Of a DNA stretch of 625 nucleotides, positions 1 to 456 are shown piece by piece. The stretch lies in the NCBI RefSeq assembly GCF_003334255.1, contig NZ_QOWU01000207.1. The stretch is one strand, 5' to 3'. The translations under genes were made by a program, and so were the position numbers. Source of the DNA: Escherichia coli. GTDB taxonomy: Bacteria; Pseudomonadota; Gammaproteobacteria; Enterobacterales; Enterobacteriaceae. Below the pieces are notes generated by a model. That model was not told the DNA's origin. It did not search any database and was given only the letters and a program-made list of their open reading frames with translations. Position 1 is the first letter of the stretch; every line of letters starts with the position of its first letter.

Positions 1-43
1 GTTTTCAGCCCCCATCATCTGTTGAGTTTCGGGAGCCGCGGTT

Positions 44-277
44 TTGACGTTTTGCGGGGACCTGCTCTTTGTTCCCTCCGGTATTCACCATCACCTGTTT
101 GAGAACCTTCGCCGCATGGGGCATCACTGCCACGGCCTGACGCACCTGTCCTGGGCAGAACGCAAAATTTTTTACCGGGTTTTGGGTAAAAAATTTTGTG
201 GGCTGTTCATTTACCCTGGACAGGTGCGGCAGGTTGTGGCTGTATCAGCCCCCGGCGACAGGGGCTTAAACAGGTGA
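44..277 (+). CDS. Hypothetical ORF (77 aa, His/Cys-rich), probably spurious
   Basis: From the ORF track. It has a TTG start at 44 with a possible SD-like GGGAG at 31-35 (8-nt spacer) and a TGA stop at 275-277. The product matches no family I recognise, and the ORF is spanned by the 88-bp compound palindrome at 141-228, which is atypical for genuine coding sequence. Confidence 0.12.
   Translation: MTFCGDLLFVPSGIHHHLFENLRRMGHHCHGLTHLSWAERKIFYRVLGKKFCGLFIYPGQVRQVVAVSAPGDRGLNR
141..228. repeat. Compound imperfect palindrome: outer 15-bp GC-rich inverted repeat (14/15 matches) enclosing the inner AT-rich palindrome
   Basis: Read directly: 141-155 CGCACCTGTCCTGGG pairs with 214-228 CCCTGGACAGGTGCG, with one mismatch at 152/217 (T/T). 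The outer symmetry axis is offset by 4 bp from the inner one, leaving asymmetric internal loops at 156-160 (5 nt) and 201-213 (13 nt). The element can form an 88-nt extended hairpin or cruciform on either strand. Confidence 0.75.
163..198. repeat. Perfect 14-bp inverted repeat with 8-bp spacer: CAAAATTTTTTACC - GGGTTTTG - GGTAAAAAATTTTG
   Basis: Read directly: arm 163-176 is the exact reverse complement of arm 185-198, and all 14 pairs (163/198 through 176/185) are Watson-Crick. Spacer 177-184 is asymmetric. Each arm contains the self-complementary octamer AAAATTTT (164-171 and 190-197). Pair 161/200 (C-G) also matches, and 162/199 would be a G-U wobble in RNA. The arms are 11/14 A+T in an otherwise GC-moderate context. 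Confidence 0.9.
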
Positions 278-456
278 ATGGCACCGGACACAACAACGGG
301 CAGGGACCCGCCGCAACGACGTGAAGCGCGGTTTGCGAAACGGCGTTGCGCCTTACATCCCGGCGTCTTTTTGCCGGGATGCCTGGAGCGCAGGCCACGG
401 CGCGACAGAGGCGGCGCGACCGGAACGGTCGCTGCAAGCCCGGGGTTTTCACGCAT
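211..456 (-). CDS. Hypothetical ORF (81 aa, Arg-rich), probably spurious; the reading frame stays open upstream to 612
   Basis: From the ORF track, with ATG at 456-454. By my reading the same minus frame is open from 612 down to 211 but has no ATG, GTG or TTG upstream of 456. It overlaps ORFs in the other frames. No recognisable domain. Confidence 0.12.
   Translation of the reverse strand: MRENPGLAATVPVAPPLSRRGLRSRHPGKKTPGCKAQRRFANRASRRCGGSLPVVVSGAIHLFKPLSPGADTATTCRTCPG
247..266. repeat. Short stem-loop: 6-bp stem AGCCCC / GGGGCT with 8-nt loop
   Basis: Read directly: 247-252 pairs with 261-266; loop is 253-260. A stem this short has weak significance in GC-rich sequence. Confidence 0.4.

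Follow-up and report, generated by a model that had tools for sequence, protein, structure and literature searches.

Frpo-type promoters date from 1997, when, as summarized in PMC7690428 and PMC9849209, Masai and Arai described single-stranded DNA of about 328 nt from the plasmid leading region that folds and thereby reconstitutes -35 and -10 boxes. According to the same two articles, the folded Frpo recruits E. coli RNA polymerase in vitro, and the resulting RNA can prime DNA synthesis. Expression that is single-strand-specific, early and transient has been described in vitro for F Frpo1, and in vivo for both Frpo1 and Frpo2 (PMC9849209, PMC12672017, PMC7690428). Deletion of Frpo2 abolished early expression of ssb and yfjA in transconjugants and did not lower transfer frequency (PMC9849209). 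Frpos and the ssi1-3 elements of ColIb together make up the class 1 single-stranded DNA promoters (Wen et al. 2025, PMC12672017), for which start sites were determined by 5' RACE at the class 1 (ssi1-3) promoters of pESBL and not at the F Frpos (PMC12672017). Rifampicin-sensitive early conversion events have been reported in vivo in a 2026 preprint and are consistent with priming from ssp1/Frpo (bioRxiv 10.64898/2026.01.09.698686). The name Frpo2 was introduced by Couturier et al. 2023, and the name ssp1b is used by Fraikin et al. 2026. In sum, Frpo-type promoters were validated in vivo between 2023 and 2025 and have been catalogued across thousands of conjugative elements. The class 1 promoters ssi1-ssi3 of ColIb-P9/pESBL are said to have been described by Bates in 1999 and by Nasim in 2004.

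The window, by which we mean the whole stretch of 625 nucleotides from Escherichia coli that was analysed here, contains an element of this already known kind and is not a discovery. We conclude with high confidence that it is a class 1 single-stranded DNA promoter, of the Frpo2 type (ssi, ssp1b), of an IncF conjugative plasmid. As reference Frpo/ssi sequences, we used those tabulated in the supplement to Samuel et al. 2024 (PMC11541004). The window was 93.6% identical to F Frpo2, which lies upstream of ssb, over window positions 1-447, 90.5% identical to F Frpo1 (the same element as ssiD; upstream of ygeA) over positions 1-448, and 87.8% identical to the F ssiD sequence (D90178.1) over 351 nt; its apical unit was also alignable with ColIb ssi1-3. 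Since the window is homologous to these references, lies in the leading region on the expected strand and carries a hairpin that is under selection, it is a member of the known family and essentially an allele of F Frpo2. Our analysis covered identity, location, strand, structure, covariation and the absence of coding, and activity of the window allele as a promoter on single-stranded DNA would be expected from the literature on its relatives. A reading made earlier from the letters of the window (hereafter, the sequence-only reading) had offered recombinase or transposase hairpins, single-strand origins, retron-type non-coding RNAs and MITE/REP-like units as candidates; it was right in looking for a functional single-strand hairpin, but no candidate that it listed was correct, the single-strand origin being nearest in function.

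In BLAST searches of annotated collections, sequences 100% identical to the window turned up in IncF-type conjugative plasmids from Escherichia, Klebsiella, Salmonella and Shigella, and more than 5000 plasmid records matched the window. Identity of at least 99% was seen in 359 of the best 5000 plasmid records, which marks the window as a common natural allele. The search of complete E. coli genomes gave 13,781 places (median 3 per genome), 13,624 of them on plasmids and 157 on chromosomes; the one chromosomal place that was inspected belonged to an integrated F-like plasmid, in which the genes had the same order. On plasmid p7_2.1 (locus L001), where the window occupies 9001-9625, ssb is annotated at 8452-8979 on the minus strand. 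Its ATG, preceded by the ribosome-binding sequence AAGGAG, lies 22 nt beyond window position 1 on the opposite strand. The leader from the hairpin base to the ssb ribosome-binding site (window 1-25, minus strand) reads ...GGCTGAAAAC ATCAACAGAAGGAGACACATC ATGGCAGTTCGTGGC within 8960-9030 of L001, and the operon downstream has the order ssb, DUF905/yfjA, a ParB-like gene (yfjB), psiB and psiA.

The F-type nick sequence TGCGTGGGGTGTGGTGCTTT was found at 1446-1465 of L001, between traM and a transglycosylase gene and on the same strand as the + strand of the window; the window lies about 7.5 kb 3' of the oriT nick. During F transfer, the strand leaves with its 5' end first from nic, and the leading region enters first. 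Given this polarity, the position of the nick sequence on the + strand identifies the + strand as the transferred strand. The + strand of the window is thus the template for ssb, and it reaches the recipient some 7.5 kb behind the nick. L001 carries a second copy at the Frpo1 position (3605-4229; 99.8% identical), upstream of a ygeA/ygeB-like pair, and a third (12330-12767; 90%) upstream of a DUF3560-methyltransferase operon. All three copies share the orientation of the transferred strand, with a leading-region operon downstream of each; ssb, methyltransferase, psiB/psiA and hok/mok genes are their neighbours. A group II intron reverse transcriptase about 0.8 kb from copy 3 was noted in one Klebsiella plasmid only.

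The sequence-only reading had drawn attention to two concentric inverted repeats, and its coordinates and pair counts proved exact: CGCACCTGTCCTGGG (141-155) pairs with CCCTGGACAGGTGCG (214-228) at 14 of 15 positions, and CAAAATTTTTTACC (163-176) pairs with GGTAAAAAATTTTG (185-198) at 14 of 14. The G+C content is 28% in the inner unit and 73% in the outer arms, compared with 62% in the window. Its judgement that such symmetry is not due to chance was borne out by 1000 dinucleotide-preserving shuffles, in which the longest perfect inverted repeat (spacer 3-20 nt) was 11, against 14 observed, with none of 14 or more. Folding of both strands, a check that it had proposed and that was run on 120-250, gave z = -9.7 for the + strand and z = -9.4 for the - strand. 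The extent that it assigned to the structure, 141-228, held only in part, in that the arms are real but the boundaries are too narrow: the 88-nt nested palindrome (141-228, + strand) is the apical third of a much longer hairpin. A repeat finder extended the arms to 126-155/214-243 and 156-176/185-205 and located more nested repeats at 91-108/260-277 and 54-82/283-311. Positions 26-341 of the + strand fold as a single continuous hairpin (5' arm 26-176, loop 177-184, 3' arm 185-341) with 123 pairs, of which 115 are Watson-Crick and 8 are G.T, and with a DNA folding energy of -109.8 kcal/mol (z = -13.1). This complete Frpo-type hairpin corresponds to the published Frpo/ssiD unit of about 328 nt. 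A conserved flank (342-449, + strand) accompanies the hairpin in every copy, being kept to about 447-449 in F Frpo1, F Frpo2 and copy 3; it contains a 9-bp hairpin (356-364/373-381) and tandem CGGCGCGAC at 398-406 and 412-420, and folding of 342-625 gave z = -3.4.

Conservation of the pairing was examined in nine F-like homologues, comprising the window, its paralogues, a Salmonella pSLT-like plasmid, F ssiD, a Serratia copy and two insect-metagenome copies. Over the whole hairpin, 89.7% of cells in this alignment were paired, compared with 39-47% when partners were slid by 1-3 columns; 16 compensatory pairs were counted, and the covariation score was reached by none of 500 shuffles. A pattern scan of a genome collection gave 8 loci, to which real divergence was added by two Entomohabitans copies only; one locus, in Phascolarctobacterium (L007), was rejected as a chance pattern match. 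The two Entomohabitans copies and ColIb-P9 ssi1-3 were included in an alignment of the apical unit (n = 11), in which 83.3% of cells were paired, compared with 42-57% after sliding, with 8 compensatory pairs and a covariation score that 0 of 500 shuffles attained. In 12 of 12 homologues, the transferred strand was 7-20 kcal/mol more stable than its complement and contained more G.T pairs, a combination that marks selection as acting on just one of the two strands. Judged from these comparisons, the pairing of the hairpin is kept by selection on the transferred strand.

We propose that the + strand of the window would enter the recipient single-stranded during conjugation, that bases 26-341 would fold back, and that the stem would mimic duplex promoter DNA. 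Host sigma-70 RNA polymerase would bind this stem and transcribe down the 5' arm toward position 1, and the transcript would continue into ssb and then yfjA-yfjB-psiB-psiA before a complementary strand exists. When the plasmid becomes double-stranded, the hairpin would be lost and the promoter switched off. The transcript from the hairpin promoter may also prime synthesis of the complementary strand. According to this proposal, the outer GC-rich arms would form the duplex that carries a -35-like TGGACA (217-222), with the inner palindrome as its apex; the internal loop 123-125/244-247 would act as a pre-melted -10 region, RNA would start near the template bulge at 115-117, and the basal stem would serve as the downstream duplex.

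Transcription with the + strand as template always proceeds toward lower coordinates, and hence toward ssb. Which arm supplies the promoter boxes is a separate matter, and the reading that we favor, and consider probable, takes the 3' arm as the non-template strand, with the -35 at TGGACA and the elements ordered from apex to base. The AT-rich inner stem (163-176/185-198, + strand; loop GGGTTTTG at 177-184) is a candidate UP-like A/T-tract duplex upstream of the -35, and the apical arm at 185-198 probably represents the UP-like element. The A:T pairs of the apex are almost invariant across homologues in the apical alignment (n = 11). A UP element is annotated in the Serratia Frpo, according to the legend of Fig. 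2e in Samuel et al. (PMC11541004), and the apex is the only A+T-rich stretch of that Frpo, which together suggest the order apex, -35, -10. The AT-rich apex is absent from the two insect-metagenome homologues and is thus not indispensable. Between the AT-rich stem and the -35-like box, the 3' arm carries an 8-base asymmetric bulge, TTCATTTA (206-213, + strand), which is unpaired in the fold and likewise in the folds of F ssiD, ColIb ssi1-3 and Salmonella Frpo*5. Its motif T-N-C/T-A-T-T/C-T is kept in most homologues; insect Frpo'4 has unpaired bases ending ...cacttta directly before CCC, in a far larger unpaired stretch.

CCC and the adjoining TGGACA (217-222) make up the putative -35-like segment at 214-222 of the + strand, the hexamer matching TTGACA at 5 of 6 positions. 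On the template arm, its partner is TGTCC (147-151), beside a T217/T152 mismatch. The pairs G148:C221, T149:A220, C150:G219, C151:G218 and GGG:CCC were invariant in 11 of 11 homologues, with covariation at neighbouring pairs, and TGTCC/GGACA and GGG/CCC are the only paired blocks of the apical unit that never vary across the F and ColIb lineages (n = 11). Stronger hexamers occupy the same 3'-arm spot in Salmonella Frpo*5 (TTGGAT-16-TACGAC) and insect Frpo'4 (TTGCAT-15-TAAGAT). These hexamers of the relatives follow a bulge (a longer unpaired stretch in insect Frpo'4) that ends at a C-run (CCC/CCCC), and in insect Frpo'4 the place of TGGACA is taken by CCC-t-TGCAT, with TAAGAT after it.

The candidate -10 region (237-248, + strand) consists of TG (237-238) followed by CTGTATCAG, on the 3' arm. 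A244-A247, which face A123-C125, are unpaired and form an internal loop that has a counterpart in the same position in F ssiD and ColIb ssi2/3, and TGTG at 235-238 is invariant among F-like homologues. The hexamers available after TGGACA, namely CTGTAT at 17 nt, TGTATC at 18 nt and TATCAG at 20 nt, are all weak. Two of these three have no A at position 2, which counts against the favored reading, as does the presence in most other copies of 3 additional bases (TCA) between the proposed -35 and -10, which lengthen the non-template spacer. Three unpaired bases of the template arm, CAT (115-117, + strand), lie 5-8 nt past the -10 loop and would mark the neighbourhood of the start, with RNA extending toward position 1; the bulge is predicted to be unpaired in the F ssiD fold as well and reads CAA or CGA in other F-like homologues. 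A plain sigma-70 consensus promoter and terminator scan of the window found no sigma-70 promoter, which counts against the identification but is unsurprising because the promoter would exist only across the two arms of the hairpin.

The same Frpo promoter might instead use the 5' arm as its non-template strand and fire toward the apex (99-127, + strand), from a -35 at TTGAGA (99-104) and, after 17 nt, a -10 at CATCAC (122-127) in the internal loop; we think this rather unlikely. RNA would then start on the 3' arm near 235 and run through the apex and down the 5' arm to ssb, and the nested palindrome would be transcribed leader and not upstream promoter DNA. In TTGAGA, 5 of 6 positions agree with the consensus, and all 9 F-like homologues have the hexamer unchanged; its 17-nt distance from CATCAC is constant in E. 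coli, Klebsiella and Salmonella copies, and the hexamer score of TTGAGA-17-CATCAC in F-like copies equals or exceeds that of the favored reading. F ssiD has CATACT at the -10 place, which matches at 4/6 and includes the A of position 2 and the T of position 6, and an invariant wobble, G134.T235, lies near the start that this arrangement would require. The 3-nt TCA indel would be harmless to it, because it would fall in transcribed DNA. However, TTGAGA is absent from the homologous promoters ColIb ssi1-3, and firing toward the apex leaves the long basal stem and the AT-rich apex without a role. In their Frpo-acrIIA4 construct, Samuel et al. used an Frpo segment that corresponds, as the reverse complement, to approximately window 1-265; it lacks 266-341 and so most of the partner of TTGAGA (265-270), and this construct was reported to be far more effective from the transferred strand of the leading region than from lagging-region or complementary-strand placements (Samuel et al., PMC11541004). 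The UP element of Samuel et al. and the A+T-rich apex also imply the order apex, -35, -10, as in the reading with TGGACA on the 3' arm.

Other explanations concern the function of the hairpin as a whole. Rather unlikely, too, is the view that it is mainly a single-strand initiation site or a barrier for complementary-strand synthesis, like sso or the F ssp2 roadblock, with expression secondary. ssiD was recovered at first as a signal for single-strand initiation. In vitro, DNA synthesis is primed by Frpo transcripts (PMC7690428), early rifampicin-sensitive conversion occurs in vivo at loci downstream of ssp1/Frpo promoters (bioRxiv 10.64898/2026.01.09.698686), and a 316-nt hairpin at -110 kcal/mol is a plausible impediment to a polymerase. 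Priming would nevertheless run through the same promoter activity and is therefore an added role, not an alternative; the roadblock was mapped to ssp2, which is of a different class, and not to Frpo1 or Frpo2 (bioRxiv 10.64898/2026.01.09.698686), and the Frpo2 deletion described above cost early ssb/yfjA expression and not transfer (PMC9849209). We regard as improbable the proposals that, in the double-stranded vegetative plasmid, read-through transcripts from the upstream methyltransferase operon fold into a double-stranded RNA hairpin, as an RNase III target or an insulator that helps to silence ssb-psiB in the donor, or that the apical AT-rich palindrome and the 8-nt bulge bind a plasmid or host protein and not RNA polymerase alpha; the apical 131 nt as minus-sense RNA fold at -67.6 kcal/mol. 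It is very improbable, despite the several near-identical copies per replicon, the long imperfect palindrome and the lack of an Rfam family match, that the element is a mobile palindromic repeat of the MITE, REP or ERIC-like kind, a hairpin recognized by a recombinase or transposase, or a non-coding RNA of the retron type. At a permissive threshold, Rfam returned generic microRNA-hairpin matches only (best 25.3 bits, against a threshold of 95), which were discarded as hairpin artefacts scoring far under the gathering level. The BLAST comparison that the sequence-only reading had suggested for such repeats did find several copies, but they are not dispersed like MITE/REP units: they are confined to plasmid leading regions, in a single orientation and directly upstream of operons, and at least one of the chromosomal places belongs to an F-like plasmid that has integrated. 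It had also suggested looking for recombinase, reverse transcriptase or HUH genes in the flanking annotation, and the L001 copies have none next to them, no reverse transcriptase, HUH transposase, other transposase or integron integrase adjoining any of the three. Searches of phage collections with the whole window and with the 88-nt unit gave zero matches. The repeat unit lacks terminal inverted repeats of its own, and its extension to about 449 is asymmetric. Retrons, integron attC sites, HUH-transposon ends, MITE/REP units, protelomerase or telomere palindromes and viroid-like rods were rejected on context. There is next to no chance that the region encodes a small protein, whether in ORF 44-277 (+ strand) or in the annotated pseudogene fragments, even though this 77-codon frame is still open in close relatives and the NCBI pipeline places CDS and pseudogene features across the region. 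The middle of the frame is shifted in F ssiD to give an unrelated peptide, in-frame stops interrupt it in the Serratia copy and in one insect-metagenome copy (insect5), segment lengths vary among homologues by non-multiples of 3, and its strand, the transferred one, is antisense to all genes of the leading region. An NCBIfam scan of five ORFs including 44-277 gave no family match. Because relatives carry frameshifts or interruptions in it, ORF 44-277 is no gene, in agreement with the doubt that the sequence-only reading had already cast on it; on the question whether substitutions preserve codons or base pairing, which it had named as a possible refutation, they preserve base pairs.

The value of these observations lies in annotation, as spurious ORFs and "frameshifted ssb" pseudogenes are routinely annotated on top of this conserved non-coding hairpin. 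The hairpin also shows where the early-expressed ssb-psiB establishment operon of antibiotic-resistance plasmids begins. As a small refinement, TGTCC/GGACA, with GGG/CCC beside it, stands out as the only absolutely invariant paired block of the apical unit, and some relatives can dispense with the AT-rich apex.

Among the known systems, F Frpo2 (NC_002483.1, approximately 58174-58621) shares with the window the position upstream of ssb, the strand relative to oriT, the hairpin and the same downstream operon of ssb, DUF905/yfjA, ParB-like/yfjB, psiB and psiA. The window allele differs from it in having no 3-nt TCA bulge after GGACAG and in a few other substitutions, and its outer stem is almost perfect. 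In addition, the window has a T:A pair in the AT-rich stem at a site of G x G mismatch in many homologues, and the absence of TCA together with this pair makes the palindrome look more perfect. F Frpo/ssiD (D90178.1) shares the AT-rich apex, the 3'-arm bulge, the CCCTGGAC box, the internal loop and the long basal stem. Frpo1 precedes ygeA/ygeB and not ssb, and its apex has a different sequence, in which a mismatch (G x G or C/A) interrupts the AT-rich stem; the bases of its -10 region are TGTCTT/CATACT, compared with TGTATC/CATCAC in the window.

The ssi1-3 elements of ColIb-P9 (IncI1, AJ238399.1) share the apical unit CGCAAAA(T/G)TTTTT...AAAAA(T/G)TTTTGTGG with the 3'-arm bulge, the invariant CCCTGGAC paired with GTCCGGGG, and the internal loop beside GGGGC/GCCCC, and their tail, CCTTACA...CGGCGCGAC, resembles the window flank at 342-449. 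ColIb ssi3 also heads an ssb-psiB operon (PMC10104558). The basal half of ssi1-3, in contrast, is unrelated in sequence and has no TTGAGA/TTGACG blocks, and the hairpin is shorter (about 160-230 nt). The sso elements of rolling-circle plasmids and the hairpins of filamentous phages follow the same principle, in which a folded strand acts as a pseudo-duplex promoter and the RNA serves as a primer (PMC7690428). They have no sequence similarity to the window, which gave no phage matches. To our knowledge, these sso and phage hairpins serve replication only. Frpo, unlike these elements, also yields translatable mRNA for establishment and anti-defence genes.

No part of the Frpo-type hairpin is, as judged by sequence comparison, more plastic than its apex, which differs among homologues in both content and length. 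The AT-rich inner palindrome is wholly absent from two copies of insect-gut metagenome origin, Frpo'5 and Frpo'6, which carry a short GC-rich cap in its place, and the apex of the Serratia copy Frpo'1 is longer by about 20 nt (both at about columns 190-260 of alignment A1). At the centre of the AT-rich stem, window positions 170/191 (columns 32/77 of A3, the apical-unit alignment), a standard pair is missing in 6 of the 11 homologues. Five of these, namely those with AAAAGTTTTT facing AAAAAGTTTT, have a G x G mismatch, and the Serratia homologue has a different non-pair; the window itself has T:A.

Lower in the stem, two G.T wobbles recur among the F-like homologues: G134.T235 is unvarying (9/9), and G135.T234 is retained in seven of the nine. 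G134.T235 is a conserved mismatch in a stem that is otherwise Watson-Crick. It lies close to where transcription would start under the alternative reading of the promoter.

Set against the Klebsiella locus L002 (20001-20329) and the construct with F Frpo2, the window allele is missing the 3-nt TCA directly after GGACAG (between 222/223); F Frpo2, like most copies, has it. Where present, TCA would bulge out of the 3' arm. Without it, the outer arms noticed in the sequence-only reading are almost perfect in the window, and the proposed -35 and -10 boxes have a shorter spacer between them.

RefSeq places two features over each of two non-coding hairpin copies of plasmid p7_2.1 (L001). One is a pseudogene labelled "single-stranded DNA-binding protein, frameshifted", the other a "hypothetical protein" marked as partial. 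They lie at window 5-210 (-) and 278-452 (+), i.e., L001 9005-9210 and 9278-9452, and the equivalent pair at L001 3609-3814 and 3882-4055. These features look like annotation artefacts, which likely arise because the palindrome holds conserved open frames.

F-like Frpo sequences at 91-97% identity were also found on contigs L006, L008 and L012, from MAGs labelled Oscillibacter, Collinsella and Erysipelotrichaceae. The most likely explanation is mis-binning, with plasmid contigs of enterobacterial origin ending up in MAGs of Firmicutes or Actinobacteria. A further candidate, L007 (Phascolarctobacterium), was rejected, as it matched the search pattern by chance only. In L002, the leading region of an IncF plasmid from Klebsiella pneumoniae, an inserted ltrA, which encodes a group II intron reverse transcriptase/maturase (29926-31593), lies about 0.8 kb away from the third Frpo copy (28766-29091).

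The repeated unit reaches past the hairpin, with conservation up to about 447-449 in F Frpo1, F Frpo2 and copy 3 of L001. This flank (342-449) contains a 9-bp hairpin (356-364/373-381) and a tandem CGGCGCGAC (398-406 and 412-420); a U-tract, as an intrinsic terminator would need, is absent from it. The ColIb-P9 relatives ssi1-3 have a resembling tail, CCTTACA...CGGCGCGAC.
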